This document shows, piece after piece, positions 3,152 to 44,332 of a stretch of 64,000 bases of DNA. The notes under the pieces were generated by a model. That model saw only the letters and a list, made by a program, of their open reading frames with translations, had not been told where the DNA came from and searched no databases. The stretch lies in NCBI GenBank assembly GCA_964429945.1, contig CAYSDX010000002.1:10154-74153 (forward strand). Direction: 5' to 3'. How positions within the stretch are numbered: position 1 is the first letter of the stretch; every line of letters starts with the position of its first letter. The position numbers and the translations under genes were made by a program. Source of the stretch: an uncultured Spirochaetia bacterium (GTDB lineage Bacteria; Desulfobacterota_D; UBA1144; Nemesobacterales; Nemesobacteraceae).

Positions 3152-3888
3152 CCTACTGCTCCGGTTCCGTCCGTTCCGCCGTTCCCGGTTTCCTCTATCT
3201 TCTTCATTACATGAGTCATTCTCTGTATTGAAGTGTAAAAGGAAAAGATGCAGAGGATGATGATAGAGAATTTCAGCAGGTAATTCCTGTTTCCTAACCC
3301 TAGAAGGAAAGTAACTATGTTGCCAAGGAAGTTAAACGCCGCGAGAACCCCTAGATAGACCATCCTCTCGGTTCTCTGCATTATTCCTACCTCGCATTCA
3401 ATTCCGAGTCCTTCTGCCCTGGCTTTCGTGTAACTGACCATCATGGAACAGCTGGCTATCAGGAAAACGATGTAAACAAAGAAAGTGTCTCTGAAAAAGC
3501 TCAGAAGGCCCAAGTAGATGAGAACTTCTGAGTACCTGTCCACGCAGGAGTCAAAGAAAGCTCCCTTGGGTGAATTGAGACCTTGTGCCCGCGCTACTCT
3601 GCCGTCGAAAATGTCAAAAGTTGAGCCGGCCAGCAGCAGCACCCCGGCTACGAAAATCATGCCCAGATGGAAAAAATAACCCGCAAGGGCGGAAACCACC
3701 AGCGTGGTGATAGTGAGTACGTTGGGGAGGAACTTTCTGTCTATAAGAAAGTCTTCTATGGGGTTCATTAGAAGGACCCACCAGGACTTGACCCCGCCCG
3801 AGAGAAGCTTGGAAGACTCCGGTTTTCTTCCTGTTTTCGATCTTTCGTCAGTTTCCCCGGAGTTAGCCGGTGTCCATTCGTTTTCCAT
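3148..3888 (-). CDS. CDP-alcohol phosphatidyltransferase family protein (PgsA-like)
   Basis: Carries the DG-x2-AR-x8-G-x3-D-x3-D motif ([23 protein letters not shown]) and several TM segments. The real start may be the internal MNPIED (about 3768). Confidence 0.8.
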
Positions 3889-4487: not shown

Positions 4488-6161
4488 TTACATGCTTCGA
4501 GGAGCGGTTATTCCTAAGAGCCCGAGACCGTTTTCTATAACTACCTGTACGCAGCGAGCGAGATAAAGCCTCGCGGAAGCTGTATCGGCATTCTCTGAAT
4601 CCAGTATCCTCGTTTTATTGTAATAAAAATGAAACTCAGCTGCCAATTCTTGGAGATAATAGACTACCTTGTGAGGAGAAAGAGAATCAGCTGCCGAGCG
4701 TACTACCTCGGGAAACCTGAGAAGTATCTTCACTATGTTTCGTTCCTCATCGTCTGAGAGGAGGTCAAGATGTTCCTCAGAAGCGCTCACTCCAGCTTCA
4801 GCCGAGTTTCTCATCAGGCTTGAGATTCTTGCGTTTGCGTACTGAACGTAGTAAACGGGATTTTCGCTCGATTCCTTTTTTGCCAGGGAAAGATCAAAAT
4901 CAAGGTGGCTGTCCGAACTTCTCATCAGCAAAAAGAATCTAGTGGCGTCACATCCGACTTCGCGAAGCACTTCGCGAAGCGTGACGAAATCACCGGCTCT
5001 TTTCGACATCGGGACTTCCACGCCGTCCCTTACAAGTCTGACAAACTGCATGAGAAGCACATGCAGAGAGAATTCGTCCAGACCGAGAGCCTTCATGGAT
5101 GACTTAAGACGCGAGACGTGACTGTGGTGATCGGCCCCCCAGACGTTTATAAGCCTGGAAAAGCCCCTTGAATATTTATCCACGTGATAGGCTATGTCGG
5201 AGAGAAAGTAAGTCGGAGTACCGTCTTTTTTTATTATTACCCAGTCCTTGCCGTCCCCGTAGAGGGATGTCTTAAACCAGAGCGCATCCTCTTTTTCCTC
5301 AACTACGTCAAGATCCCGAAGTCTGGCAAGAGTCTTGTCGATTTTCCCCTCTTCCGAGCCGCGACCGTGTATTTTAGCCCTCTCGCTGTACCAGTTGTCA
5401 AAATCCACCCTCAGGTCAAGAAGGTCCGTTTTTATTTCCCCAAGCAGTTTTGAGTAGGCAAATTCTTTACAGAACTCGATGGCAACCGATTCATCCCCGG
5501 GCACCTGCGGACATTTGTCCGACACCTTTATCTCTTCGGCAAGCTGGGATACGTACTCGCCGCGATAACCGTCTTCAGGAATCTCTCTTGCGAGTCCGAA
5601 TAATCGCGCGAGAGCCGAGTACACCGACTCGCCGAGCATATCCATCTGCCTTCCCGCGTCGTTTACGTAAAACTCTCTTGTTACCTCGTATCCGCGAAAG
5701 GAAAGTATCCTGCACACTGAATCTCCGACAACGGCATTTCGCGCGTGACCGAAATGAAGGTAGCCCGTGGGATTGGCGCTTACGAACTCGACTATTACCT
5801 TTTGGCCGGAACCCTCTCTGGAGGCTCCGTATCGCTCACCGAGACGAAGGATCTCAAGAAGAGCGGATTCAAACAAGGTTTCATTGACGAAGAAGTTGAT
5901 AAATCCCGGTCCCGCTATATCGAGCCTTTCTATGAAACCGCACTGGCTCCGCTCTATGGCCTCGACTATCTGTTGCGCGACTTTGCGCGGATTTTCGCCC
6001 GTCATGCTTCCTATGATGAGCGCCGCGTTTGTGGAGAAATCGCCGAATTCCTTTTTTTTCGGAACCGACACCTCAAACTCCGCCTTATCACCCGGCGGGA
6101 TTCCAGGGAACTCAAGCAAATCCACGGATTCTTTTATGACTTTCAGTATTTCGTCTTTCAT
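4488..6161 (-). CDS. argS: Arginine--tRNA ligase
   Basis: 557 aa with SANPTGYLHFGHARNAVVGD (HIGH region), FYVNDAGRQM and MSKRAG (KMSK-like). Ends in ...RSM as ArgRS typically does. Confidence 0.95.
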   Translation of the reverse strand: MKDEILKVIKESVDLLEFPGIPPGDKAEFEVSVPKKKEFGDFSTNAALIIGSMTGENPRKVAQQIVEAIERSQCGFIERLDIAGPGFINFFVNETLFESALLEILRLGERYGASREGSGQKVIVEFVSANPTGYLHFGHARNAVVGDSVCRILSFRGYEVTREFYVNDAGRQMDMLGESVYSALARLFGLAREIPEDGYRGEYVSQLAEEIKVSDKCPQVPGDESVAIEFCKEFAYSKLLGEIKTDLLDLRVDFDNWYSERAKIHGRGSEEGKIDKTLARLRDLDVVEEKEDALWFKTSLYGDGKDWVIIKKDGTPTYFLSDIAYHVDKYSRGFSRLINVWGADHHSHVSRLKSSMKALGLDEFSLHVLLMQFVRLVRDGVEVPMSKRAGDFVTLREVLREVGCDATRFFLLMRSSDSHLDFDLSLAKKESSENPVYYVQYANARISSLMRNSAEAGVSASEEHLDLLSDDEERNIVKILLRFPEVVRSAADSLSPHKVVYYLQELAAEFHFYYNKTRILDSENADTASARLYLARCVQVVIENGLGLLGITAPRSM

Positions 6162-6179
6162 TAACTTCCTCGTCCCGGC

Positions 6180-6794
6180 TTATTCATCGGGAGAGTTCAG
6201 GTGATCAATATCGTTAAGGGATATTATAACGAACCTGTCGTTGTATATTTCAATGACGGTTTTTGAGGCTTCGTCCACTATGTAATCGCGTAGTTTCTTA
6301 AGGGGGCTTCCGGTAAAACTGCAGAGCAGCGTACCTATAACCATATTGTGGCTTACGACCACTATGTTCTGCGATCCGAAACGGCTTCTGATATCAGCTA
6401 TGGCGTCAAGGGCCCTTTGCTGAACGCCGATTAGGGATTCTCCGCCCGGCAACTGCAGGGTTTCGGGGTCGTTGCGCCAGTGCTCAAGCACGTGAGAATA
6501 TTCCTCCTGTATGTGGGAGAAATAAAGTCCTTCGAGAATTCCCTGGTCCATTTCCCGAAGATCGTCTCTGAAATTAACGTCAACAGAGTGATACCCGGCG
6601 ATTTTCTCGGCGGTCACCTTTGCCCTTACGAGGCTGCTTGAGTATATGCGGTCGATCCTCTCGTCTTTAAGGGAGAAAGCCAGTTTCTCGGCCTGCTCAA
6701 TTCCGGAGGAGTTAAGCGGAACGTCACTTATCCCCTGGCATCTTCCGGTTTCATTCCAGTCAGTTTTTCCGTGTCTTACTAGTGTCAGGCGCAT
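6180..6794 (-). CDS. Histidine phosphatase family protein (phosphoglycerate mutase/CobC-like)
   Basis: Has the RHG motif at the N-terminus (MRLTLVRHGKTDWN) and a second catalytic His region (VVVSHNMVIG). Confidence 0.8.
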   Translation of the reverse strand: MRLTLVRHGKTDWNETGRCQGISDVPLNSSGIEQAEKLAFSLKDERIDRIYSSSLVRAKVTAEKIAGYHSVDVNFRDDLREMDQGILEGLYFSHIQEEYSHVLEHWRNDPETLQLPGGESLIGVQQRALDAIADIRSRFGSQNIVVVSHNMVIGTLLCSFTGSPLKKLRDYIVDEASKTVIEIYNDRFVIISLNDIDHLNSPDE

Positions 6795-6800
6795 AATAGC

Positions 6801-7592
6801 TCACTTTTTGGTTTCACAGGAGATTACAAAGAATTCCGATTTTATCCTGTCTCTCAACTCAGTTGGCGGAGCGGGAAACGGCGAAGCGGCGTTTACGGCT
6901 TTTATGCAGTAAGAATCAAACTTCGTGTTTCCAGAACTTCTCTCTATCCCCACATCATATACCTCGCCGTTTTCCTTCATATAAAAATTCACCTGGGCTG
7001 CGAGGAAAGCACTGGAGTCTATGTTAGGGAGCAGAAACAGGTTTTTCTGTATGCGTTTCGATATTGTCCTGTAATAAACGTCAAGCACAAGCGAGATGAT
7101 TCCCGGGCCGGTCTCTTTGGAAGCCGGCTGGACCGATGTTCCTGCTGTTTTCTTGATGGTTTTCAAGACGGATTCCTTCTTTATATTCCTGATTACCTCC
7201 TCTCTCTCCGATTCCAGAGGGCTTTCTTCGGCAGGGGGAGTTTCTTTCCGCATTTCGGGTTCCGTTTTCTCCGCGGTTTTCTCGGTAACCGTTTCCTTGG
7301 GCTTCACTGCAGGTTCTTTTTTCTTCTCGGGGGGTTTTACCTGCGCCGGGGGAGCTTTTTTGACTTTTTTCTTTACGCTTTGCGACGGCTTCTTCGGGCG
7401 GCTGGGTGCCTTCACCTCTGATTTTTTCTTGTTAACGCGCGGAGCGTGGGTTGAAAGCGATACCTCTATTGAATTCTCCGGGGAAATTTTCCCGTGCCCT
7501 CCCACTCCTAAGGCAAGCAGGCAGACTATGAGCAGATGAAGACCCAGAGAAATGAAAAGCCCTTTACGAAATAGATTTTCCTCTCCCTTCAT
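6801..7592 (-). CDS. TonB/TolA-family energy transducer
   Basis: N-terminal TM anchor, a long Lys/Pro/Glu-rich spacer, and a TonB_C-like end (SSGNTKFDSYCIKAVNAASPFPAPP). It lies directly downstream of the TolQ/TolR-like pair. Confidence 0.7.
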   Translation of the reverse strand: MKGEENLFRKGLFISLGLHLLIVCLLALGVGGHGKISPENSIEVSLSTHAPRVNKKKSEVKAPSRPKKPSQSVKKKVKKAPPAQVKPPEKKKEPAVKPKETVTEKTAEKTEPEMRKETPPAEESPLESEREEVIRNIKKESVLKTIKKTAGTSVQPASKETGPGIISLVLDVYYRTISKRIQKNLFLLPNIDSSAFLAAQVNFYMKENGEVYDVGIERSSGNTKFDSYCIKAVNAASPFPAPPTELRDRIKSEFFVISCETKK

Positions 7593-7596
7593 CTTT

Positions 7597-8055
7597 TTAC
7601 ATGTCCGCTTTTTTATCCCTTATGTTTTTTGACTCCGTGACCAGGCTTAGTCTTTGTACTCCGGTTTTTTTTATCTCGTCTATCACCTTTACCACGAATC
7701 CGTATTTGACCGACTTGTCGGCCCTTAGAAAAACCCGCCCGCTATCGGGCGCCGTTCCTTCCGCTTCCATGAGTTTGCCTAGAGCGGCGCCGATCTGGGA
7801 GAGCGGATAAGTCTTGTCTTCGAGAAATATATTTCCGGATCCCGTCAGGGTCACGGTTATTCTTTTCTGGTTTTTCACGGGGATTTTAGAAGACGCTGTC
7901 TGCGGAAGGCTTACCTTGATCCCCTGATAGAGTATGGGAGTGGTAACCATGAAAATGACCAGCAGAACCAGCATCACGTCGACAAAGGGAGTGACGTTTA
8001 TCTCGGAGAGGGGCGACCTGCGTGAACCCGTATTGAATTTTCCCGCTGCTGCCAT
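7597..8055 (-). CDS. ExbD/TolR family biopolymer transport protein
   Basis: 152 aa with INVTPFVDVMLVLLVIFMV, the typical ExbD/TolR N-terminus, and a single TM segment. Confidence 0.85.
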   Translation of the reverse strand: MAAAGKFNTGSRRSPLSEINVTPFVDVMLVLLVIFMVTTPILYQGIKVSLPQTASSKIPVKNQKRITVTLTGSGNIFLEDKTYPLSQIGAALGKLMEAEGTAPDSGRVFLRADKSVKYGFVVKVIDEIKKTGVQRLSLVTESKNIRDKKADM

Positions 8056-8071
8056 GAGGCGAAATTCCCCG

Positions 8072-8788
8072 CTACCTGTTTAGATACCTGTCCGCCGTGT
8101 TGAGAAACCCGGCGCAGAAGTTCTCCATTTCCGCTTCCATCGCTCTTACCTGGCTGACGAAGTAATTGTAGGCCACCGTGGCGGGAATAGCGGCGGCAAG
8201 ACCTATTGCGGTCGCTATAAGAGCCTCCGCGATTCCAGGGGCCACCACCTCAAGCGAGGGGACCCCTTTGCTTCCCGCGAGTCCTATAAAGGAGTTCATG
8301 ATACCCCACACGGTTCCGAACAGCCCTATGAACGGGGCGGAACTGCCGGTGGTGGCAAGAAAGACCAGGGACTTCTCGAGCTTCGAAGCTTCAGCGGTCA
8401 TTGCCCTGTTAAGAGCTCTTTCCACTAGGTCTACGGATTCGGCGCGAGAAGACATGTCTCCATTTTGCTGCGGGTCGTGTTCATCCCGGCTTTTCTTCTT
8501 TTCCGTTTTCACCACTTCCGCGTAGCCCGCCCTGAACAGTTCGGCAACAGGACCACCGACTCTTTCCGAGAAGGAAAGAAGCGCTCTCATGTCTTCGTTT
8601 GAATGGTAGAGGTTGAGAAACGCAGCCGATTTCTTGGAAGAACTTCTTAGAAGACGGAATTTCGTGTAGATAATCGCCCAGGAAAAAACGGACATGAAGA
8701 TTAAAAGTAAAAGCACGGCCTTGACCACAGGTCCGGTGCTTACAAGCAGCATTAATATGTTGTTTGTTCCTTCTGCGAACAAATTCAT
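8072..8788 (-). CDS. MotA/TolQ/ExbB proton-channel protein
   Basis: 238 aa, three TM segments, conserved LATTGSSAPFIGLFGTVWGIM and GIAEALIATAIGL. Confidence 0.85.
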   Translation of the reverse strand: MNLFAEGTNNILMLLVSTGPVVKAVLLLLIFMSVFSWAIIYTKFRLLRSSSKKSAAFLNLYHSNEDMRALLSFSERVGGPVAELFRAGYAEVVKTEKKKSRDEHDPQQNGDMSSRAESVDLVERALNRAMTAEASKLEKSLVFLATTGSSAPFIGLFGTVWGIMNSFIGLAGSKGVPSLEVVAPGIAEALIATAIGLAAAIPATVAYNYFVSQVRAMEAEMENFCAGFLNTADRYLNR

Positions 8789-14254: not shown

Positions 14255-14734
14255 TTATCCCTGCCTACGGCTTCCCTTAGCGCGTTTCCCTCTGGCACTG
14301 CGCACTCTCGGATCAACGATCTTACCTCTGGTGACGGTTAAGCCATGTGCCGATAAATGTTGCTTAGCAAGACGGAACAGTTCTTCGGACATTTTGTGTT
14401 TTACCAGAAAGTGCCGAAACTTGCAGAGAGTGGTCTCATCCGGAATTCTCTGCATGGACACGCCGGCAAAACGGCGCATGGACTCAATGTCGTAAAGACT
14501 TTCTTCCATCGCCGGATCCGACAACCCGTACCACTGCTGCATCAGGTAAATGCGCAGCATGACCTTGGCCGGTATAGGTCGGCGTCCCTTGCCGGACTTC
14601 GGATATTTCTTCAGTATCGGTTCAAGCAGCAGTTCCCACGGCAGCATCTCATCCATCTTTTCAAGGAATCGCTGCTTGCGGGTCACTTTCTTTTTGTTTC
14701 TGTAGGCTAGGTCGGAAAAACTGGGCTTTTTCAC
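14255..14734 (-). pseudogene. IS5-family (InsH-like) transposase, N-terminal fragment only; DDE domain deleted
   Basis: Collinear with E. coli IS5 InsH from the N-terminus (RKQRFLEKMDEMLPW, GRRPIPAKVMLRIYLMQQWYGLSD, ESMRRFAG) up to ...TRGKIVD. Homology stops near nt 14312, and 18 unrelated Arg-rich codons follow before the stop. Confidence 0.7.
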
Positions 14735-17132: not shown

Positions 17133-18239
17133 ATGCCCGCTCGAAATGACACGGACTTTATGAAAAAAGCTCTGAGGCTTGCCCTCAGAGGGGAAGGGTG
17201 CACCAGCCCCAACCCCATGGTCGGCGCTGTCTGCGTGCTTGGGGGACGTATTGTAGGCCGTGGCTACCATAAAAAATCCGGTTCTCCTCACGCGGAAATC
17301 GAAGCTTTTGGGGATGCTGCGAAAAAAGGAATTTCTCTCGCGGGCGCAACGCTTTACGTGACGCTTGAGCCCTGCTGCCACACTGAGAAGCTTACTCCTC
17401 CGTGTACTGACGCTATAGTGGCCTCGGGCGTATCCAATGTTGTCGTGGGCACCATTGACCCGAATCCGAAAGTGAGCGGAAAGGGGGTGGCGAAGCTTCG
17501 CAGAAGCGGGATATCTGTGAGAACCGGGGTGCTTGAGAGGGAGTGCGCGGAAATAAACGAGTTTTTCAACAAGCACGTCGTCTCGGGACTTCCTTTCGTA
17601 ATCTTAAAATCCGCTTCGACTATTGACGGCAAAATAGCTTCAGGGACGGGTGATTCCAAGTGGATAGGGAGCGTGAGGCAGAGAAAGATGGCCCATGGGC
17701 TGAGAAAGAAAGTGGATGGCGTGATAGTCGGGATAAACACGGTGCGCGCAGATGATCCGGGGCTTGACGTTCGTCTCGTCGGCGGGAACGTGCGCCAGCC
17801 GGTTCCGGTGATTATGGATTCAAAGCTCCGTATTTCGCCCAAAGCAAAGATCTTCAGCGCCCATCCCCGCTCCGTAATAGCCACTACGGAGGCCGCAAGC
17901 CCGATTAAGGCCAAGAGACTTTCCAAGCTCGGTGCCGAAATCCTGAGATTAGAATCCGATTCTGCGGGCCGCGTGTCCGCTGTGGACCTCCTCCGCGAAC
18001 TCGGGGCCATGGGGATGTGTGGAGTTCTGGTTGAGGGAGGGAGCAGGGTAGGGGCCTGTTTTCTGCGAGAGGGCCTGGTTGACAAGGTGGTTTTCTTCTA
18101 CTCCCCCAGGATTATCGGAGGCGACGGGGTGAATATGATTGGAGATCTTGGGAAGGAATCGATTAAAGAGGCGATTAATGTCAAGAACATCAAGGTCAAA
18201 AGGTTCGGCGATGAAATGATGATAGAGGGTTACATATGA
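17133..18239 (+). CDS. ribD: Bifunctional riboflavin biosynthesis deaminase/reductase RibD
   Basis: CDA zinc motifs (HAEIEA, LEPCCH) followed by the reductase domain (KSASTIDGKIA, VLVEGG). Confidence 0.9.
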   Translation: MPARNDTDFMKKALRLALRGEGCTSPNPMVGAVCVLGGRIVGRGYHKKSGSPHAEIEAFGDAAKKGISLAGATLYVTLEPCCHTEKLTPPCTDAIVASGVSNVVVGTIDPNPKVSGKGVAKLRRSGISVRTGVLERECAEINEFFNKHVVSGLPFVILKSASTIDGKIASGTGDSKWIGSVRQRKMAHGLRKKVDGVIVGINTVRADDPGLDVRLVGGNVRQPVPVIMDSKLRISPKAKIFSAHPRSVIATTEAASPIKAKRLSKLGAEILRLESDSAGRVSAVDLLRELGAMGMCGVLVEGGSRVGACFLREGLVDKVVFFYSPRIIGGDGVNMIGDLGKESIKEAINVKNIKVKRFGDEMMIEGYI

Positions 18240-19490
18240 AAGTAGGGAGCCTTACATTACTAGATGTGAACGGATGCGATTGCAGGCAAATCGGGTATAT
18301 ATACGGTGATGATAAAGACTTACAAGTGCCGTGCCAAGCTGACAAAGTCGGGTCATAAAGCGTTATCTCTGGTGTTCGGGATGTGCGCGACACTTTACAA
18401 TGCCTGTCTTGAGGAGCGTATTGACTGCTACAGGAAGACGGGTAAATCCCGTTCATATTACGACCAGTGCAAGGCACTGACCGAAGTGAGAACGGATGAT
18501 CCAGAGTATGCCAATATCAGCGTTCAGGTGTTCCGTGGAGTTGTAGGTCGCATAGACAAGGCATACAAGCGGTTCTTTAAGCATGGTGGTTTCCCGCGAT
18601 TCAAGAGTTCCGGGCGTTGGCGGACAATAGAGATAAACGACCAGTGCTGGCATATGCTGAAGCGTGAGAGGCAGAAGCTTGTTCTCAAGGTAAAGGGGCT
18701 TCCCCGTATCGAAGTAAAGACCGAACGGGAGCTGCCCCCAAACTCATTGCTGAAAGCGATACGAATAACCAGAAAGCCTTTGCGCACGGAAGTCGCATTA
18801 TCTTACGAGTTGCCAACTCCCGAGGCAAAACCAGCCGGCAATCCCGTTGGGATAGACATGGGGATATCGAAGCGTCTTACCTTGAGCAACGGGGAGACCG
18901 TGGAGAAGAGGGAAGTGGACAGGCGGAGGTTAATGCGGCTACAGCGTTCCGTATCTCGCAAGAAGAAAGGAAGCAACAACAGAAGGAAGGCCATTTCGTT
19001 GCTGGCGAGAGAGTGGCAGAGACTTACGGAAAAAGAGAGGAACTATCTCCACAGGCTGACTTCGGAGATAGTAAGGATGTACGACTTTATAGCGGTAGAA
19101 AAACTTGAAACGAAAAAGATGCTTGGCAACAAGCAGTTGGCAAAGAGCATACAGGAACAGACTTGGAGAAAATTTGCTACGCTGCTTAACGAGAAGGCTG
19201 AGAGTGCTGGCGTTACAGTAGTGGCGGTGAACCCCAAGGGGACTTCGCAGGAATGCTCAAGTTGTGGAGCAACAGTAGAGAAATCTCTGTCTGTCCGGAC
19301 GCACAGGTGTAATTGTGGATATGAAGCGGACAGAGACGTAAACGCGGCAATAAATATCCTTCATCGAGGCATCTCGGTTGTGGGTGGGAAACTCAAGCAG
19401 TCCCGCATGGTCGGAAGGATGAGAGAGAAGCAAGACAGCAGTCTTGCTCGGCCAAGAACAGTATATGTCTACCAATGTGTATAAATCCCA
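18240..19490 (+). mobile_element. IS200/IS605-family element remnant carrying tnpB only (no tnpA); ends not mapped
   Basis: It fills the whole ribD-nadD gap. Only 66 bp lie upstream of tnpB, and the tnpB stop overlaps the nadD start. No Y1 transposase ORF is present. Boundaries are approximate. Confidence 0.5.
18306..19484 (+). CDS. tnpB: TnpB (IS200/IS605 OrfB) RNA-guided DNA endonuclease, catalytic residues intact
   Basis: 392 aa with RuvC-I GIDMG, RuvC-II AVEKLE, zinc ribbon CSSC-x14-CNC and RuvC-III DRDVNAAINIL. N-terminus is MIKTYKCRAKL. The start is GTG 18306 or ATG 18309. Confidence 0.9.
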   Translation: MMIKTYKCRAKLTKSGHKALSLVFGMCATLYNACLEERIDCYRKTGKSRSYYDQCKALTEVRTDDPEYANISVQVFRGVVGRIDKAYKRFFKHGGFPRFKSSGRWRTIEINDQCWHMLKRERQKLVLKVKGLPRIEVKTERELPPNSLLKAIRITRKPLRTEVALSYELPTPEAKPAGNPVGIDMGISKRLTLSNGETVEKREVDRRRLMRLQRSVSRKKKGSNNRRKAISLLAREWQRLTEKERNYLHRLTSEIVRMYDFIAVEKLETKKMLGNKQLAKSIQEQTWRKFATLLNEKAESAGVTVVAVNPKGTSQECSSCGATVEKSLSVRTHRCNCGYEADRDVNAAINILHRGISVVGGKLKQSRMVGRMREKQDSSLARPRTVYVYQCV

Positions 19491-19495
19491 AAATA
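19350..19495 (+). ncRNA. Predicted omega-RNA (reRNA) scaffold overlapping the tnpB 3' end
   Basis: Inferred from TnpB biology plus visible structure: a perfect 8-bp hairpin (AGCAAGAC-AGCA-GTCTTGCT, 19429-19448) and an enclosing CCTTC/GAAGG pairing (19358-19362 with 19413-19417). Ends are not defined. Confidence 0.3.
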
Positions 19496-20152
19496 GGTCT
19501 TATGGGCGGTTCGTTCGATCCCGTGCATGCCGGTCACCTGAGGGCCGCTGAAGAGATAAGCGAAAAACTGGGGCTTGACGAAGTGGTTTTCATTCCGGTT
19601 CTTCTCTCTCCTCATAAAAACTCCGAGACCATGACCAACTCCTCCCACAGGCTCAACATGCTTAACCTCTCGATAAAAGCCAATCCTCATTTCAAGATTT
19701 CCGATATGGAACTTCGCAGGGAGCCCCCGTCCTACACTGTCGATACTCTCAGGTCGCTCAACGAAAGCAACCCGGAAGACAGGCATTATTTCATAATGGG
19801 TTCCGAACTTTTCGCCGAGATAGATACGTGGAAAGAGTTCGCGGAGCTTTTTAACTACTCAAGTTTCGTTGTTCTCCGCCGTCCCGGTTACGACGTTCCC
19901 GATTCCGCCAGCCTGATTCCTCTTGCCCTCAAAAATGACTTTCGATATTCTTATAGCGACAAGGGCATGGATGTTTTTACTCACACAAGCTCAAATGAGT
20001 TGTTTTTCGTAGATATCGCCGGCATAAGGGTTTCTTCCACGGAGGTCAGGGAACTCGCGAGCCGGGGTAATTCCCTAAGATATCTGGTAGTGCCTGAAGT
20101 GGAAGAGTACATAGCGGGAAACGGCCTTTACCAGCTGGAGGAAAAACTATAG
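19475..20152 (+). CDS. nadD: Nicotinate-nucleotide adenylyltransferase NadD
   Basis: KIGLMGGSFDPVHAGHL (the (H/T)xGH motif) and a SSTEVR-type C-terminal motif (ISSTEVRE). The ATG at 19475 overlaps the tnpB stop at 19482-19484. Confidence 0.9.
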   Translation: MCINPKIGLMGGSFDPVHAGHLRAAEEISEKLGLDEVVFIPVLLSPHKNSETMTNSSHRLNMLNLSIKANPHFKISDMELRREPPSYTVDTLRSLNESNPEDRHYFIMGSELFAEIDTWKEFAELFNYSSFVVLRRPGYDVPDSASLIPLALKNDFRYSYSDKGMDVFTHTSSNELFFVDIAGIRVSSTEVRELASRGNSLRYLVVPEVEEYIAGNGLYQLEEKL

Positions 20153-20538: not shown

Positions 20539-21618
20539 TTAACGGGCGGCGATTCTTTCTCTTCTTCTGACGAAAGTCGGTATGTCCAGGTTTTCCTCCA
20601 TATCCGGATTGAACGGCTGCTCCGAGATTATATCGGCCGTCTTTTTATCGATGTAATTCTCTATTCCGGTCGCGACCACCGTGATCCTTACGAAATCCTT
20701 GGCTTTTTCATCAAAGACCAGACCGAAAATCAGATCGATATCGCCGTTTGCTCTTTCCCTTATGTGGCTGCATGCTTCGTTCAGCTCCTCGATCCCGAAA
20801 TCCTCGGAAGCCGTTACGTTCATCAGTATCCCCTTGGCTCCGGCGATGGACACATCCTCGAGAAAAGGGCTTGTTATGGCCATCTGGGCTGCCTGAGTCG
20901 CCCGGTTCGGACCCTGTGCGAATCCGGAGCTCATAAGGGCTTTGCCTCCATGGTTTGCCATTATGCTCTTCACATCGGCAAAATCGACGTTGATGTAACC
21001 GGTTCCCGTAACAATGTCGGAAATTCCCTTTACCGCCTGATAGAGAACTTCATCTGCCTGACGGAAGGCGTCAAGGATGCTGACTTTGTGTATGGCCGCA
21101 AGCTTGTCGTTGGGAATTACGATCAGCGTGTCGACATATTTGTCCAGCTCCTCGATCCCGTAATCGGCATTCTCCCTTCTCGCAACTCCTTCGAATTCGA
21201 AGGGCTTTGTTACTATCGCCACGGTGAGAATGTCCTTCTCCCTGCATGCCTGGGCAATTACGGGAGAGGTGCCTGTTCCCGTTCCGCCTCCCATTCCCGC
21301 GGTTATGAAGACCATGTCGGCTTCCCCTATGACGTCGCTTATCTTGTCACGGTCATCCATGGCGGCCTCCTTCGCGAGCTGGGGATTCCCCCCGGAACCC
21401 AGACCCCTGGATATACTCTCTCCTATCTGGAGTTTCGTCGGGGCCAGAGATTTGGTCAGATCCTGAAAATCCGTGTTCACGGCGACGAACTCCACTTCTT
21501 TAAGTCTCTTGCTTATCATGGTGTTAATGGCGTTTCCGCCCGCCCCACCTGTTCCTAGAACCTTGATTTTCGCTTTGCTGAAGTCCTCTTCAACATGCTC
21601 AAACTCAAAGATTGCCAT
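20539..21618 (-). CDS. ftsZ: Cell division protein FtsZ
   Basis: GTGGAGGNAIN and GMGGGTGTG tubulin signatures. The ATG at 21618 has GGAGGG 8 nt upstream. The ORF-track TTG at 21633 lies inside that RBS. Confidence 0.95.
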   Translation of the reverse strand: MAIFEFEHVEEDFSKAKIKVLGTGGAGGNAINTMISKRLKEVEFVAVNTDFQDLTKSLAPTKLQIGESISRGLGSGGNPQLAKEAAMDDRDKISDVIGEADMVFITAGMGGGTGTGTSPVIAQACREKDILTVAIVTKPFEFEGVARRENADYGIEELDKYVDTLIVIPNDKLAAIHKVSILDAFRQADEVLYQAVKGISDIVTGTGYINVDFADVKSIMANHGGKALMSSGFAQGPNRATQAAQMAITSPFLEDVSIAGAKGILMNVTASEDFGIEELNEACSHIRERANGDIDLIFGLVFDEKAKDFVRITVVATGIENYIDKKTADIISEQPFNPDMEENLDIPTFVRRRERIAAR

Positions 21619-21645
21619 ATGCTTACCCTCCAATTGGATTTTTGC

Positions 21646-22884
21646 TTAAAAAAATTCGTTAAACCAGCCTTTCATTCTTGCAAAAACATTTTTCTGTCTC
21701 AAAATTCCTGCCGCGACGTCAGGGTCCTCGTTCAAACTGGCGTATTTGACCAGTCCCACTCCGGTCGAGTATATCGGGTCGGTAATAATTTCCTTGAGGC
21801 CTCGGGTGTCGTGGGGTATCCCAATGCGAACCGGCATATCAAGTATCCGCTCGGCAAGAGTCGCCATCTCCCGCATCTTACTGCTTCCGCCCGTTAGCAC
21901 TACTCCGGCTGGGAGCATGCCTGTGAACGACTGCTTTGTGAACTCTTCTTTTATCAGCGTAAAAATTTCCTCCATCCTAAGTTCTATTATCTTCGTAAGA
22001 TCCGTCTTCAGAACACGTTTGGATATGTGTCCCGAAGCGCTTTTTACCTCTATTCTCTCGTCGATCGCCATTTCATCCGGCTTTGCCGTGGCTGCGCCGT
22101 GATTTTCCTTGAGCATTCTCGCTTCCGGAAGCGGTACCGAGAATGCGAATGCTATATCCCTGTCAAGATGGTCTCCTCCAAGGGTAATGCTTTCGGTATA
22201 CTTAACGCTTCCGTTCATAAACACCGCTATGTCGCAAGTGCCTCCTCCGAAATCTATCATTGCCGTCCCGATTTCCTTTTCGTCCTGCGTGAGAACCGCT
22301 TCGCTCGAAGCTATCTGCTCAAGTATCATGTCGGCGGAAGCCATTCCGGACATTTCTATGCACTTTATAATATTACGGGCCGCGGTCACGTCCCCCGTGA
22401 CTATATGAACATCCGCCTCAAGCTTTAAGCCGTGGATTCCAACCGGATCTTTTATGCCGCTTTCCCTGTCAACCCTGTAATCTCGCACTATAGCGTGAAT
22501 AATTTCCCTTTCTGCTGGAATCAGAAGTGCGTTTGCCGATTCGATCACTCTTTCGATATCCTTGGGAGTTACTTCCTTATCCCGCAGGGTAACCATACCG
22601 TGGCCATTCATTCCCTTTATGTGCCCGCCGGCGATTCCTACCATGACTTTCTCTATTCTGTGTCCAGACATGCGTTCAGCTTTCTCAACCGCTTTTTGTA
22701 TGGAGTCCACGGTCTGTTCTATGTTGACTACTACTCCTCTTTTAAGTCCTCGGGACGGATGGTTGCCGACGCCAATTATTTCAATCTCGCCGTCTAGGTC
22801 AAGCTCTCCCACGACTACGGAGACTTTCGTCGTTCCTATGTCAAGACCAACTATCGGCAGCGAACTGTTTTTTCTATTCGTCAT
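21646..22884 (-). CDS. ftsA: Cell division protein FtsA
   Basis: 412 aa, actin-like ATPase (VGLDIGTTKVSVVV, IDFGGGTCDIAVF, LTGGSS). Confidence 0.95.
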   Translation of the reverse strand: MTNRKNSSLPIVGLDIGTTKVSVVVGELDLDGEIEIIGVGNHPSRGLKRGVVVNIEQTVDSIQKAVEKAERMSGHRIEKVMVGIAGGHIKGMNGHGMVTLRDKEVTPKDIERVIESANALLIPAEREIIHAIVRDYRVDRESGIKDPVGIHGLKLEADVHIVTGDVTAARNIIKCIEMSGMASADMILEQIASSEAVLTQDEKEIGTAMIDFGGGTCDIAVFMNGSVKYTESITLGGDHLDRDIAFAFSVPLPEARMLKENHGAATAKPDEMAIDERIEVKSASGHISKRVLKTDLTKIIELRMEEIFTLIKEEFTKQSFTGMLPAGVVLTGGSSKMREMATLAERILDMPVRIGIPHDTRGLKEIITDPIYSTGVGLVKYASLNEDPDVAAGILRQKNVFARMKGWFNEFF

Positions 22885-22894
22885 CTTCGCAATA

Positions 22895-23596
22895 TTATGA
22901 GTCGTAACCGATCAGACCTACCTCGCCTGAGCTTATATCTATGTATTTTTCTACGAGGTTTTTCTTGCGGGCATGAACTATTATCCTCTCAATCTTGCGC
23001 CACTTGCTTGTCATGTTGTTTTTTCCGAAGTTTATAAACCTTCGATCCATCGTCAGAAGCTTGATTCCGAAGTTCTCCTCCACAACTATTCTCGAAATTT
23101 CCGACCACTCAAGAATCGAGCTTGACTTGGAAAGATCTAGAATCTCGATTGCCTGGAGCAGCAGGTCCTGGCTTATCTTCTCTTCTCCCGAGACCAGCGG
23201 CAAATTGGAAGCCTGAGACATCTCTGCGACTCCAAGCCTCTTTCCTTTTCTGTTTACATAATAAGGCTTTTCCCCCTCCGGGATGACCACGCAAAAGGGT
23301 TCGTTCTCGGAAATCTTTATCACTATCTTTCCGTGAAGAAATTTTTTCACGGAGATGTCGCCTATCCATGGGTTTTCCAATATTCTCTTTCTCACCCCGG
23401 AAGATGAAAACAGCATTGAGGTGGACCCTGCTTTTATATCGGAGCGTTCTACTATTTCTGATATATTTATCCTATCGTTTCCAGAGATTACAATTTCCTT
23501 TACCGTAAGATGTTTTGACGGCTGAACTGCAGAAAGCGCGATCCCGCAAATGGAGAAGAACAGAACTATTTTCAGTCCCTTGGTCAAAATCTTCAT
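22895..23596 (-). CDS. ftsQ: Cell division protein FtsQ (POTRA domain)
   Basis: 233 aa, N-terminal TM segment, POTRA-like VKEIVISGNDRI. Position is between murB and ftsA. Confidence 0.8.
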   Translation of the reverse strand: MKILTKGLKIVLFFSICGIALSAVQPSKHLTVKEIVISGNDRINISEIVERSDIKAGSTSMLFSSSGVRKRILENPWIGDISVKKFLHGKIVIKISENEPFCVVIPEGEKPYYVNRKGKRLGVAEMSQASNLPLVSGEEKISQDLLLQAIEILDLSKSSSILEWSEISRIVVEENFGIKLLTMDRRFINFGKNNMTSKWRKIERIIVHARKKNLVEKYIDISSGEVGLIGYDS

Positions 23597-24480
23597 CTGA
23601 CTTCAGCCTCCTTTCCCATTATCTCGACCTCGGGTTCGAGCGTTATATTTCTTTTCCTCAAAGCGGTTTCCTTAGCTGTTTTGATGAGCTCTATGATATC
23701 GTCCGCTTTTGCCTTGTTGAAGTTCACGATGAAATTCGCATGGATTTCGGAAAACTTTGCTCCGCCGACGCGGCGTCCTTTGAATCCGAGTCCCTCAAGG
23801 AGTTCCCCGGCGCTGACCGTGGTCGGATTTTTAAAGACCGAACCCGTATTGGCCATTTTAACGGGCTGGGTCCTGTTCCTGTAGGCGAGGTATTGTCTCA
23901 CATTTTCTTCGCTCTTTTTCCTATCTCCTTCACGCAGTTCAAATACGGCTTTTGTCACCACGCAGTCCGCGGGCAGGTTGCTTTTTCTGTATTCGAAGTT
24001 TATTTCCTTCCTTGACATCTCTTTTTCCTTTCCTTTGTGCCATATGTACACTTTTTTCACCGCGTCCTTTATTTCTCCTCCGTTCGCGCCGGCGTTCATG
24101 TATATGCTTCCTCCCACCGTTCCCGGTATGCCCGCGGCGAACTCAAACCCCGTGAGCCCGAGCCTGATCGATTTGTTCATTATGAACGAAAGCATAGCTC
24201 CGCATTCGGCTTCAACGCGCGTGCCGTCTATGCGCACCTCCTTGAGTTTCTTTGTGCTTATCACCACGCCGTCAATTCCCTGCTCGGTTATTATGGTGTT
24301 GGAACCCGCTCCGAGCACGGTGACTTTCTCCCCTTCGTCATGGTAGCGCTTGAGTAGTTGCAAGAAGCTTTTCATGTTCCGCGGATACACGAGACGCTTT
24401 GCTTCGCCGCCGACCTTTATGTACAGGTATTTTCTCATCGGGTAGTTGTCCAGTATGTCAATATCGCTGTTTGGATTCAT
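23593..24480 (-). CDS. murB: UDP-N-acetylenolpyruvoylglucosamine reductase MurB
   Basis: 295 aa with VLGAGSNTII, AGIPGTVGG and GSVFKNP motifs. Confidence 0.9.
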   Translation of the reverse strand: MNPNSDIDILDNYPMRKYLYIKVGGEAKRLVYPRNMKSFLQLLKRYHDEGEKVTVLGAGSNTIITEQGIDGVVISTKKLKEVRIDGTRVEAECGAMLSFIMNKSIRLGLTGFEFAAGIPGTVGGSIYMNAGANGGEIKDAVKKVYIWHKGKEKEMSRKEINFEYRKSNLPADCVVTKAVFELREGDRKKSEENVRQYLAYRNRTQPVKMANTGSVFKNPTTVSAGELLEGLGFKGRRVGGAKFSEIHANFIVNFNKAKADDIIELIKTAKETALRKRNITLEPEVEIMGKEAEVR

Positions 24481-42131: not shown

Positions 42132-43619
42132 TTATATCAACTGTAACTGTCGCAAGGTTTTACTGATGCTGTATCTATACTCAATTCCTGATTCTGCCAA
42201 AAGCCGATCAATATCCAAGGATTTAAGCAACTGGATCGTAATAGGTCTTTTGCTGTCCCAGAAAATAAAAGATCTATAGAAGATATTTGCTGTACCTGAG
42301 TTCAGCAGTTCTGCTAATCGGTAAGATTCTTCAGCGTTATCCATGGCAATGAAATTTACAGTATCATCAAATACAACAGCTTTCCTCTCGTGAGGACCAA
42401 CAACAAAGAATTCAAGTTTTTTGTAAAGGGCGGGAATAGCTACTTTCCAACTGCTAAAGGTATAGTCTCCAACTCCGAAAACGGAGAATCTCGGTTTGTC
42501 TTTATATATTGAACTTACTCTTCTATCTAGCAAGTCACTGTATTTTATCAGGTATTCTAATGTCTTAGGTGCCGTCTCCGCCAAATGTTTTGTTTCCTGT
42601 CCGATTCTTGTTTGTGGAACTAACATGAATTTTTCAGGAGTTCTGCCATTCGCAAGGCAGGAACCCTTCAACAAGGGGTAAAGACACGAGTCTTCAAGCT
42701 CGTTTGTATCACCAAGCCCGTTTATATATAAGTTTTCCTCAATTTTTTCCAATTCCATGATTTTTGAGCAGTCATGTTTGATTCCTGTTCTCCATTTATA
42801 ATGCTGTCCATATTCAATTAGGTGTTTTGTTTTTCCGTAGCTGTGGATATCGGCGACAAGAAAAGAGTCCCGCAATCCTATTGTCTGAATGGGATTATCC
42901 GCTTGTATATCATTATACACCTTGCATTCTTTGCATTTTTTATCGGATGAACTTACGGTCAGTAGGCAGGCATCAGCGGAAACCTGAAAATGAGATTTTG
43001 AATCAATGAGGTGCATGGTGGCAACTTCCATCTTCTTGTCGTGTTTCCATGCGTTCAGCAGAACTTTCCTTGCAACTGAAGTTTTACATAACATTGCTAC
43101 GATTCCCTGCTTTTTTTGGAGCCATTCAATCATCCGGTTTATCATCCACTCCGAGATATCAAAATTACTTTTTCCTGTTAAAGCATCCAACCCTTTCATT
43201 TTTTTATGATTTTGTTTTGCAGGCAGGTTATCGCTTTTTAACTGACCAAGCTGTGAGTTTGTAACCCATGGAGGATTCCCTATTACCAGAATGGGTTCCG
43301 GCAGATTATCCAAGTCAGATTCCCAGTTTTTAGAGAAAAAATCAGCTGTTTCAATTCTAGCGAGAATGTCCCCGCTGTAATCTGAGAACCAGTTTTTTAA
43401 CGCCTCAATGTAGCTACCGTCAATATCACAGGCGTATCCAGCCTTTGCTTCATTAAACGCATTCAGTGCTTCCATAAAGAAAGTGCCTATACCACAGGTT
43501 GGTTCAACGATGCTTCTTGGTACAACTTTGTTCTTTTTTAACAATATGCAGACTTGCTGTGCCAACTCTTGTGGAGTTTGAAAATCGCCGTATTCTACTT
43601 TCTTGGCATCTTTGGTCAT
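42132..43619 (-). CDS. Type II N6-adenine DNA methyltransferase (gamma-class, Eco57I/TaqI-like)
   Basis: FQTP-type N-terminus (YGDFQTPQELA), SAM motif I (VEPTCGIGTFF) and catalytic motif IV (GNPPW). About 300 aa of C-terminal sequence presumably forms the target-recognition region. DNA is low-GC. Confidence 0.8.
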   Translation of the reverse strand: MTKDAKKVEYGDFQTPQELAQQVCILLKKNKVVPRSIVEPTCGIGTFFMEALNAFNEAKAGYACDIDGSYIEALKNWFSDYSGDILARIETADFFSKNWESDLDNLPEPILVIGNPPWVTNSQLGQLKSDNLPAKQNHKKMKGLDALTGKSNFDISEWMINRMIEWLQKKQGIVAMLCKTSVARKVLLNAWKHDKKMEVATMHLIDSKSHFQVSADACLLTVSSSDKKCKECKVYNDIQADNPIQTIGLRDSFLVADIHSYGKTKHLIEYGQHYKWRTGIKHDCSKIMELEKIEENLYINGLGDTNELEDSCLYPLLKGSCLANGRTPEKFMLVPQTRIGQETKHLAETAPKTLEYLIKYSDLLDRRVSSIYKDKPRFSVFGVGDYTFSSWKVAIPALYKKLEFFVVGPHERKAVVFDDTVNFIAMDNAEESYRLAELLNSGTANIFYRSFIFWDSKRPITIQLLKSLDIDRLLAESGIEYRYSISKTLRQLQLI

Positions 43620-43624
43620 TGCTC

Positions 43625-44284
43625 TTATTTCAACAAATTATGTACCCTATCAACATTCCCGGCCACTTCGATTATGCGGCCGTACTGCAATCTCCATTGC
43701 ATGGCGTTTGAAATGGTCAGGTAACCTTGTTCAGGCTTTCTTTTAAGAAGTTCCTCCGCTATTTTGTTCGCTTGGATATCATCAACGGGCAAGTTCCTCT
43801 CATACATAAATGCGATAAGATCATCGCTGTTACAATTGTTTTCAAGTATATGACGTAACCCCTTGGTGGTTTGGTAATCACCCGTAATTTCTTTTTCTAC
43901 AAAAATTGTGTGCAGAAAGTTCAGGCGACCCGTTTTTTTCTTATGATCGTCAATTTTTTCATAGACAAAAACCAGAAGAGAATATCCCAAGCCATAAATT
44001 TTTTGCCTTGCAGACCTGTAGGGACAGGATGATTGAGGCTGCTTTATGCTTGTGACCTTTATGTCAATCTCCAAGTTTGGGAAATCAATTCCTTTTGCGG
44101 AACTTCCGAATTTGAATTCGTAGGTTTCGGCAAGATATTCCCTAAACTTATGTTCAATAAAAGTACCTACCGCTTTGCCGTCGGTTATTCCATAAATTTC
44201 AGGAAAAGTTATCCTTGAGTGGGTTGGGGAAAATGATTTTGCCCCCTGAAGAAGTCTTCTTCTTGTGAGTTTTGGTTTTTTCAC
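43625..44284 (-). CDS. Type II restriction endonuclease candidate (PD-(D/E)xK; MutH/Sau3AI-like catalytic block)
   Basis: GKAVGTFIEHKF...FGSSAKGIDFPNLEIDIKVTS resembles the E. coli MutH block [23 protein letters not shown]. The GTG at 44284 is preferred because longer starts overlap the divergent SPFH gene. There are 5 nt between it and the methylase gene. Confidence 0.65.
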   Translation of the reverse strand: MKKPKLTRRRLLQGAKSFSPTHSRITFPEIYGITDGKAVGTFIEHKFREYLAETYEFKFGSSAKGIDFPNLEIDIKVTSIKQPQSSCPYRSARQKIYGLGYSLLVFVYEKIDDHKKKTGRLNFLHTIFVEKEITGDYQTTKGLRHILENNCNSDDLIAFMYERNLPVDDIQANKIAEELLKRKPEQGYLTISNAMQWRLQYGRIIEVAGNVDRVHNLLK

Positions 44285-44332
44285 ACAAGTATTATAATGT
44301 ATGGACACATAAGTATCTAATGGAGGTGCCAG

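Follow-up and report, generated by a model that had tools for sequence, protein, structure and literature searches.

The window analysed here is a 64,000-nt stretch of contig CAYSDX010000002.1 from an uncultured bacterium. At the junction of ribD and nadD it carries a 1243-bp insertion sequence that encodes TnpB. The element is a non-autonomous member of a multicopy, Candidatus Dadabacteria-specific family. It was inserted exactly between the ATG and codon 2 of nadD, that is, inside the gene, and duplicated 8 bp of the target. It contains tnpB and a structured RNA at the 3' end of this gene, and nothing else. An earlier reading of the same DNA, made without database searches (the sequence-only reading), had found tnpB between ribD and nadD. 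The element does adjoin both, but its place is within nadD, behind the original ATG. That reading also missed the inverted-repeat and duplication ends and the rebuilt start of nadD. The coordinates are collected in Table 1.

Table 1. Features of the TnpB element and of its target genes, in window coordinates
Feature	Position	Strand	Remarks
ribD	17133..18239	+	Pfam RibD_C and dCMP_cyt_deam_1; stop TGA (18237-39) overlaps the original nadD ATG
Original nadD start codon	18236..18238	+	Severed from nadD; from the empty-site comparison
Leader open reading frame, 40 codons, MKVGSLTLLDVNG...	18236..18358	+	Opened by the orphaned nadD ATG; crosses the left end and runs 47 nt into tnpB, out of frame with it
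Left target-site duplication AAAGTAGG	18239..18246		7/8 identical to the right copy
Inserted element, 1243 bp	18247..19489	+	Missing at the empty sites of L063 and L064
Non-coding left end, 62 nt	18247..18308	+	Terminal repeat has a 4-nt gap; homology to the long left ends in L007 and L027
tnpB	18309..19484	+	391 aa from the probable start ATG 18309; GTG 18306 is the mechanical start of the reading frame
tnpB, RuvC-I D codon	18855-57	+	
tnpB, RuvC-II E codon	19098-100	+	
tnpB, zinc ribbon CxxC...CxC	19254-19316	+	
tnpB, RuvC-III D codon	19335-37	+	
Omega-RNA-like structured RNA scaffold	19356..19489	+	Overlaps the tnpB 3' end and reaches the element tip; six nested helices, possible pseudoknot; RNAalifold
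Right terminal repeat, reverse complement GGGATTTATACACATTGGTAGACATA	19464..19489	-	nhmmer with the repeat profile, E 5e-4; alignments
Element-encoded ATG	19475..19477	+	Shares the reading frame of nadD codon 2; 15 nt inside the right tip; overlapped by the tnpB stop (TAA, 19482-84)
nadD as now encoded (predicted), 225 aa, MCINP+KIGLMGGSFDP...	19475..20152	+	Pfam, orthologue comparison
Right target-site duplication AAAATAGG	19490..19497		nadD codons 2-3 and two bases
Predicted guide AAAATAGGTCTTATGG	19490..19505	+	From the geometry of ISDra2 TnpB and its omega RNA
Unoccupied target site of a paralogous element, single AATGAAAT at the def stop codon	52515..52522	-	L057-L062 hold an element between AATGAAAT and AATGAGAT

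The open reading frame (ORF) at 18306-19484 had been described as a full-length TnpB of 392 aa, and Pfam, NCBIfam and phmmer support this. All relatives begin ATGATAAG, which makes ATG 18309 the probable true start. Three Pfam domains were found in the ORF: HTH_OrfB_IS605 (PF12323; 28.1 bits, cut-off 21, E 1.4e-6), OrfB_IS605 (PF01385; 64.6 bits, cut-off 30.5, E 1.2e-17) and Cas12f1-like_TNB (PF07282; 84 bits, cut-off 26.3, E 8e-24). The last two are the families that the sequence-only reading had proposed as a check. The NCBIfam model guided_TnpB (NF040570) was reached with 253.6 bits against a cut-off of 100; the second-best match, the narrower IS200_TnpB model, was not (203.4 bits, cut-off 425), nor was IS607_TnpB (96.9 bits, cut-off 350). 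In the PDB, phmmer aligned the TnpB of ISDra2 (8bf8, 8exa and 8h1j) to residues 20-359 of the window protein with an E value of 2e-33. Residue by residue against 8bf8, the motifs GIDMG, AVEKL and DRDVN fall on those of ISDra2 D191, E278 and D361. The triad D184/E265/D344 thus occupies the catalytic positions, as had been proposed, and it is invariant in all 121 members when the window protein is aligned with the best 120 of its 5041 homologues. In the same alignment the zinc-ribbon cysteines C317, C320, C335 and C337 are also invariant. The ribbon is CSSC-x14-CNC, just as had been read by eye; it lies between RuvC-II and RuvC-III, and its CxC second half, in place of CxxC, is family-wide. By every sequence test the ORF is a full-length TnpB that looks catalytically intact. 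The nearest cultured relatives of this protein, on Deinococcus, Thermus, Paenibacillus and Bosea plasmids, are ~36% identical. The element has a G+C content of 49.7%, against 50.6% for the window, and G+C at third codon positions (GC3) is 57.5% in tnpB and 56-61% in neighboring genes. The line 18361-18420, counted by hand as 52%, measures 51.7% and is indeed host-like, in contrast to the 39.5% of a low-G+C island at 42132-44332. This island holds a 495-aa ORF with weak matches to the N6_Mtase and Eco57I methylase families, followed by ~700 bp without a long ORF.

Two genomes, L063 and L064, are the closest to the window (L numbers denote loci of relatives), with NadD proteins 94% and 93% identical to that of the window. 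Both have an empty site, ...GGTTACAT ATG AAAATAGG TCTTATGGGCGG..., without tnpB and with ribD and nadD overlapping at ATGA. The window reads ...GGTTACAT ATG (18236-38) AAAGTAGG (18239-46), then the element (18247-19489), then AAAATAGG (19490-97) TCTTATGGGCGG... The duplicated target begins with A, and this preserves the stop codon of ribD. A second pair of filled and empty sites is found at the def stop region, which is empty in the window and filled in L057-L062. Alignment to relatives with short left ends had suggested a left boundary at ~18266, which gave no duplication; the genomes with the empty site place it at 18247. Homing with co-conversion of the flanks was considered and rejected: DNA identity to L063 and L064 is 94-98% for 2 kb on either side of the insertion, and the divergent tract that begins 2 kb downstream is unrelated. 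In that tract (window ~21500-24000, ftsA-ftsQ-murB) identity to the closest relatives falls from 94-98% to 66-87%, while L063 and L064 stay 93-97% identical to each other. It looks like a recombination tract imported in the lineage of the window.

The ends of the family are best seen in close relatives, where they form imperfect inverted repeats of ~25 bp. The left one is GGGAATTATAGnnAnAnCTAGACAG and the right one is its reverse complement. Directly outside the ends lies an 8-bp direct repeat. It is perfect (8/8) at six independent sites, namely ATATCGCT (L001/L004), AAAATTCC (L002/L006), ATAAGACT (L003), ATAGCTTT (L007), TAAAAATA (L008/L028) and AAGATACT (L027), and matches at 7/8 positions at three further sites, including the window. 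The duplication is 8 bp long at every readable site. A variant repeat, GGGACTTATATA..., occurs at both ends of L007 and of L027, so the two ends co-vary. Inverted-repeat scores for L003, L004, L007 and L027 are 33-51, against ~17±3 for shuffled sequences, and none of 500 shuffles reached them. No such terminal repeats were found above noise in distant cyanobacterial TnpB loci. Within the window and L001-L009 the terminal-repeat profile matches the ends of tnpB elements and nothing else, and viral contigs scanned for the repeat gave no match.

No transposase gene was found beside tnpB. The absence of a Y1/HUH TnpA from the window, already noted by eye, holds: the 35 non-overlapping window ORFs, including all those of 100-260 aa, have no Pfam match to Y1, serine-recombinase or DDE families, and the 1243-bp element has no room for TnpA. 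Gene calls of the relatives' loci, where these came with calls, likewise include no Y1, DDE or other transposase family. The sequence-only reading, which concluded that the element cannot mobilize itself, was right that neither it nor the window supplies a transposase, but not about the missing partner. The ends are of the inverted-repeat and duplication type, and therefore a Y1/HUH TnpA is not the relevant one; from these repeats and the 8-bp duplication we infer a DDE-type transposase that acts in trans. The sole transposase-related match in the window is a truncated DUF772 (IS5-like) fragment (14255-14734). It was rejected as the partner: its end resembles the repeat at 9/11 bases by chance, and the second match, in L002, lies in an unrelated region. 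This fragment, between rho and a chlorite-dismutase-like gene, is a 159-aa ORF on the minus strand whose only domain, DUF772, corresponds to the N terminus of IS5-type transposases. L063 and L064 have an equally long ORF at this place, and the fragment is therefore a conserved transposase remnant and not a recent one.

Conservation is much higher in the last ~180 nt before the right tip than in the coding sequence that precedes them. RNAalifold on 17 copies gave six helices, all retained in the window copy. In the consensus RNA 97.2% of the cells are paired and 10 pairs show compensatory changes. None of 500 shuffles reached these values, and controls in which the partners were slid by 1-3 columns gave 1-3 compensatory pairs. 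A variable hairpin (GCAAGAC...GTCTTGC in the window) has repeatedly changed on both sides. There is a possible 7-bp pseudoknot, AUCCUUC with GGAAGGAU, which shows one compensatory change only. By its covariation, this is a structured RNA that resembles omega RNA. The scaffold ends at the element tip, and therefore the predicted guide is nadD codons 2-7. Compared with the empty sites, it is identical to that of L064 and differs at one position from that of L063. In an empty allele, owing to the 8-bp duplication, the guide sequence would directly follow ...ATG on its 3' side, and this is the place expected for a target-adjacent motif.

The right end of the element appears to give nadD a new start. 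The junction reads ATG TGT ATA AAT CCC / AAA ATA GGT CTT ATG GGC, or MCINP-KIGLMGG. Native NadD has 221 aa in more than 40 orthologues and starts with MKIGLMGGSFDP (MKIGLMGG...); all 14 full-length mates of its protein cluster have this length, one more member being a 61-aa fragment. In the 225-aa NadD the cytidylyltransferase domain (Pfam) begins at residue 9, which is profile position 1. The only other in-frame start is ATG 19502, giving 216 aa (MGGSFDP...), which was picked by the source gene caller (19502-20152); the source annotation thus mis-starts NadD because of the insertion. A start at this codon would drop KIGL, which is kept before GGSFDP in all the 221-aa orthologues and forms the first strand of the nucleotide-binding fold in NadD structures. 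The right-end ATG overlaps the tnpB stop codon, as is typical where translation is coupled, so the translation of nadD is probably coupled to that of tnpB. In the subfamily of the window this ATG lacks its own Shine-Dalgarno sequence; the other subfamily has the tnpB stop 2 nt ahead of the ATG and a GGAGG 12-13 nt upstream. No sense-strand terminator is predicted in the element, which is co-oriented with the operon and is therefore probably read through. No convincing left-end promoter was found in the window or in L004. On the left side, ribosomes coupled from ribD may translate the leader ORF opened by the orphaned nadD ATG. A leader ORF that stops just ahead of the tnpB ATG was tried as a family rule for left-side coupling; it holds for L002, L004 and L026 (TAG at -5), and not for L003, L027 or the window.

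We catalogued 15 independent insertion sites, to which a metagenome scan contributed 4 close loci. At 9 of the 15 the right tip abuts codon 2 of a co-oriented host ORF (117-703 aa) with the right-end ATG in frame. The host genes encode NadD (window), a CDC48-like AAA ATPase (L001), a glutathione S-transferase (L003), a SAM hydroxide adenosyltransferase (L009), an ArgC-like dehydrogenase (L026), an epimerase (L027) and three uncharacterized ORFs without Pfam match (L002, L005/L066, with the search made on L005, and L065). In the first six of these fused hosts the Pfam domain begins at residue 5-9, which is profile position 1-2. The codon ahead of the left duplication, which is no longer needed once the element is inserted, is ATG at 7/9 gene-start sites; of the other two, L002 has ACG and L065 cannot be read. 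All 9 gene-start copies retain the right-end ATG, which is lost in 2 of the 6 others (ATA in L007, AAA in L008). Five of the remaining sites lie between genes or at stop codons (L007, L008, L057, L067 and L078), and several of these still show GTG, TGG or AGG before a duplication that begins with A. In L073-L077, a degenerate, frameshifted extra uvrC 5' end (3205-3444; IELKRLL...GGYLMKNASGRPIYIGKAKNLRSRV) lies downstream of the right end and is followed by an intact uvrC; this element seems to have been inserted at the uvrC start, which was later rescued or duplicated. Under random non-disruptive insertion, 9/15 gene-start sites have P ~2.5e-17. NadD and the host genes of other sites are prone to be mis-started in annotation or to carry element-derived N-termini (MTIIP, MAIIP, MYISP).

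Two further observations concern single loci. In L009 a ~2.2-kb insert (5909-8100) interrupts tnpB after residue ~302, with the remainder of tnpB and the right end following behind it; the 453-aa ORF of the insert reads by eye as a group II intron reverse transcriptase/maturase. L057-L060 have a second, distant TnpB (positions 1-785; 409 aa, ~28% identical) 2 kb upstream of the family member.

Among the matches listed, 119 homologues are 74-90% identical to the window TnpB, and those that are labelled belong to Candidatus Dadabacteria. Nine close genome loci come from metagenome-assembled genomes of Candidatus Dadabacteria or Thermodesulfobacteriota. No other protein more than 90% identical to the window TnpB was found in a set of 5.8 billion proteins. 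Closed genomes hold several diverged copies each, and one 1.90-Mb contig holds four (P0010, P0012, P0047 and P0120). The ratio of nonsynonymous to synonymous substitution rates (dN/dS) is 0.10-0.24 across the family; over codons 1-340, outside the RNA overlap, it is 0.10-0.23 for every pair. Copies at the same site in different species were found in L001/L004 (dS 0.49, ratio 0.12), L005/L066 and L008/L028. At such orthologous loci the family TnpBs are, judged by these ratios, kept functional in place.

We consider it likely that the element in nadD is a selfish one, low in cost and hard to lose, which is moved in trans by a DDE-type transposase and restarts its host gene; it is probably still functional. 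A DDE-type transposase supplied in trans, and not a Y1 TnpA or a serine recombinase, would move it. The operon transcript would read through the co-oriented element, and the in-frame right-end ATG would remake NadD with MCINP replacing the initial M, its overlap with the tnpB stop coupling the translation of nadD to that of tnpB. The scaffold that ends at the tip would take nadD codons 2-7 as guide. If TnpB acts as in ISDra2, its complex with the RNA would cleave nadD alleles that lack the element (...RTG + AAAATAGGTCTTATGG...), and repair from an occupied allele would restore or spread the element. nadD is essential, for NAD synthesis. Imprecise loss of the element would destroy the nadD start, so only precise loss would be viable.

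Several points weigh against this interpretation. The ~0.5 Mb of Dadabacteria DNA that was sampled yielded no transposase whose ends match. The left and right ends of the window copy score 18 against each other, with shuffles at 16.6±3.2, so that its inverted repeat is not above chance; the left end may already have been degenerate at insertion, because the adjacent left duplication is still 7/8. We infer which nadD start is used, and the source annotation chose the other one, ATG 19502. The RNA has no Rfam match at gathering or permissive thresholds, and its single-sequence fold is no better than shuffles (z -0.58). An RTG stands upstream of the duplication at 11/13 readable sites, and at gene starts it is inseparable from the start codon. 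With an ATG|A-like target motif and purifying selection, 26-35% of the surviving insertions are predicted at gene starts, an expectation that rests on motif counts in the window; for 9/15 this gives P = 0.005-0.04. Much of the start-codon enrichment therefore needs no special mechanism. We read most of the targeting as a sequence preference, and the in-frame right-end ATG as an adaptation that makes gene-start sites viable.

A broader proposal is that the family represents an undescribed kind of TnpB transposon, with DDE-style ends and an 8-bp duplication, an evolved insertion at the boundary of start and second codon, and splicing into operons at the level of translation. We hold this tentatively, leaning somewhat against it. 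Its right end may provide an in-frame ATG beside or overlapping the tnpB stop, with a GGAGG of its own in one subfamily. In the literature searched on TnpB elements neither start-codon targeting or replacement nor an 8-bp duplication is reported. If the proposal is true, host genes, here nadD, come to depend on the element for their expression, and the guide is automatically the first codons of the host gene, which arms the element against clean alleles. A bolder extension, that no separate transposase exists and that TnpB itself, with its RNase-H fold, acts on the inverted repeats, is much less likely.

The selfish element still has to be set against other origins. An unlikely one is a stranded relic, immobile and with an inactive TnpB, whose frame stays open only because the nadD start needs translational coupling. 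Such a relic would fit the degenerate left end, the nadD ATG that overlaps the tnpB stop without its own Shine-Dalgarno sequence in this subfamily, and the fact that no donor copy is known. However, coupling selects for an open frame only and not for an amino-acid sequence, while all 7 catalytic and zinc-binding residues and the RNA helices are intact in the window copy. Its dN/dS against the nearest paralogues is ~0.10, though this includes the history before insertion; no orthologue of the window copy exists.

The sequence-only reading saw in an isolated copy within a housekeeping gene string the best candidate for a domesticated or uncharacterized RNA-guided function. In this account a nuclease-active TnpB and its RNA would have been co-opted, for example to regulate or protect the ribD-nadD operon. 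We consider this quite unlikely. The copy belongs to a multicopy mobile family inserted at many unrelated genes, and the comparison of the ribD-nadD locus that had been suggested shows a clean empty site in L063 and L064, which counts against domestication. More than 40 NadD orthologues, all of 221 aa, also lack the insertion, and no second tnpB copy above 90% identity is known. The strong purifying selection on tnpB (dN/dS 0.10-0.24, including L001/L004 at the same site) would suit a host function, but is equally expected of a selfish element that depends on homing. Host-like G+C and GC3, a left terminal repeat that is not recognizable in the window copy and a nadD whose translation now seems to depend on the element also favor co-option. 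Against it, the predicted guide is a mere flank, the default state of any TnpB element, and the catalytic triad is intact, unlike in TldR-type derivatives. Least probable, and in our view very unlikely, is an ordinary tnpB-only element of the IS200/IS605 type (IS1341 group) that a Y1 TnpA encoded elsewhere would move in single-stranded form: the best structural and sequence relatives are indeed ISDra2-type TnpBs (~36% identity), IS200_TnpB is the second-best NCBIfam match and solo tnpB copies are common (PMC10691335), but this is contradicted by the 8-bp duplication in two filled/empty pairs and by the ~25-bp terminal inverted repeats of relatives, IS200/IS605 having neither feature (PMC13565253), and the IS200_TnpB score of 203 bits is below the 425-bit cut-off. 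We thus retain the selfish element that restarts nadD.

Cas12 descends from TnpB, whose gene is one of the most abundant in prokaryotes. What is understood of TnpB biology comes almost entirely from IS200/IS605 elements, and these leave no scar when they excise. Why cut-and-paste elements with inverted repeats carry TnpB is debated (PMC13565253). In this family filled and empty alleles both occur naturally, the duplication is a defined 8 bp, and the predicted nuclease is compact, with 391 aa and a ~130-nt RNA. Once the duplication is allowed for, its conserved motif sits exactly where the target-adjacent motif of TnpB should be. The start-codon design would be a distinct, low-cost way for a transposon to sit in essential operons, and the tie between host-gene expression and the element would make the latter hard to lose.

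The window element shares some features with each of several known systems. Like the TldRs, which are nuclease-dead domesticated TnpBs, its tnpB stands beside host genes without a transposase gene. TldRs, however, have lost RuvC residues and target conserved promoters, whereas here the triad is invariant in the 121 members and the locus is polymorphic among close relatives, the insertion being absent from the closest ones. All three RuvC acids are present, and the earlier judgment that this is not a nuclease-dead TldR-type protein was correct.

With ISDra2 TnpB and its omega or right-end RNA (8bf8, 8exa, 8h1j) the window system shares the domain order, the aligned D/E/D triad and a structured RNA that extends from within the 3' end of tnpB to the element boundary and so has flanking DNA as its guide. 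The window TnpB is ~30-36% identical and differs in its CxxC...CxC zinc ribbon. ISDra2 has hairpin ends that abut a TTGAT target, whereas the window family has inverted repeats and an 8-bp duplication. The window element is without TnpA, and owing to the duplication its conserved RTG lies 8 bp from the left end. Meers and colleagues are said to have found in 2023 that TnpB cuts the empty site and so keeps or restores the element. The role of TnpB is described in the same terms, as empty-site cutting to keep or restore the element, in a review, which also states that IS200/IS605 and IS607 elements have neither inverted repeats nor target duplications (PMC13565253). The 8-bp duplication in two filled/empty pairs and the inverted repeats of relatives place the window element outside IS200/IS605, including the tnpB-only IS1341 group. 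The same duplication, the absence of a resolvase match in the window and the IS607_TnpB score below its cut-off separate it from IS607. By the end structures that define these two families, the element belongs to neither.

In end structure the family resembles the rare TnpB elements linked to DDE transposases. Both have symmetrical inverted ends, which in the present family are seen clearly in the relatives of the window copy, a tnpB no more than 250 bp from one end, and solo copies that would be moved in trans. The IS630, ISL2 and IS1031 types make 2-3-bp duplications, unlike the 8 bp found here. These types are the partners reported for DDE-linked TnpBs (PMC13565253); none was found for the window family in the Dadabacteria DNA sampled. 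Six such TnpB branches have been described (DDE-1 to DDE-6; Altae-Tran et al. 2023), all linked to DDE transposases and inverted terminal repeats, and solo TnpBs with inverted terminal repeats, solo copies being common, are taken there to be moved in trans (PMC10691335). Finally, the IStrons, which combine a group I intron with TnpB, also insert into genes without destroying them, and in both cases guide RNA and host expression must share one transcript. In IStrons the gene is restored by RNA splicing, whereas the window family would restore it at translation, through an in-frame start by which M and 4 further residues replace the native M.

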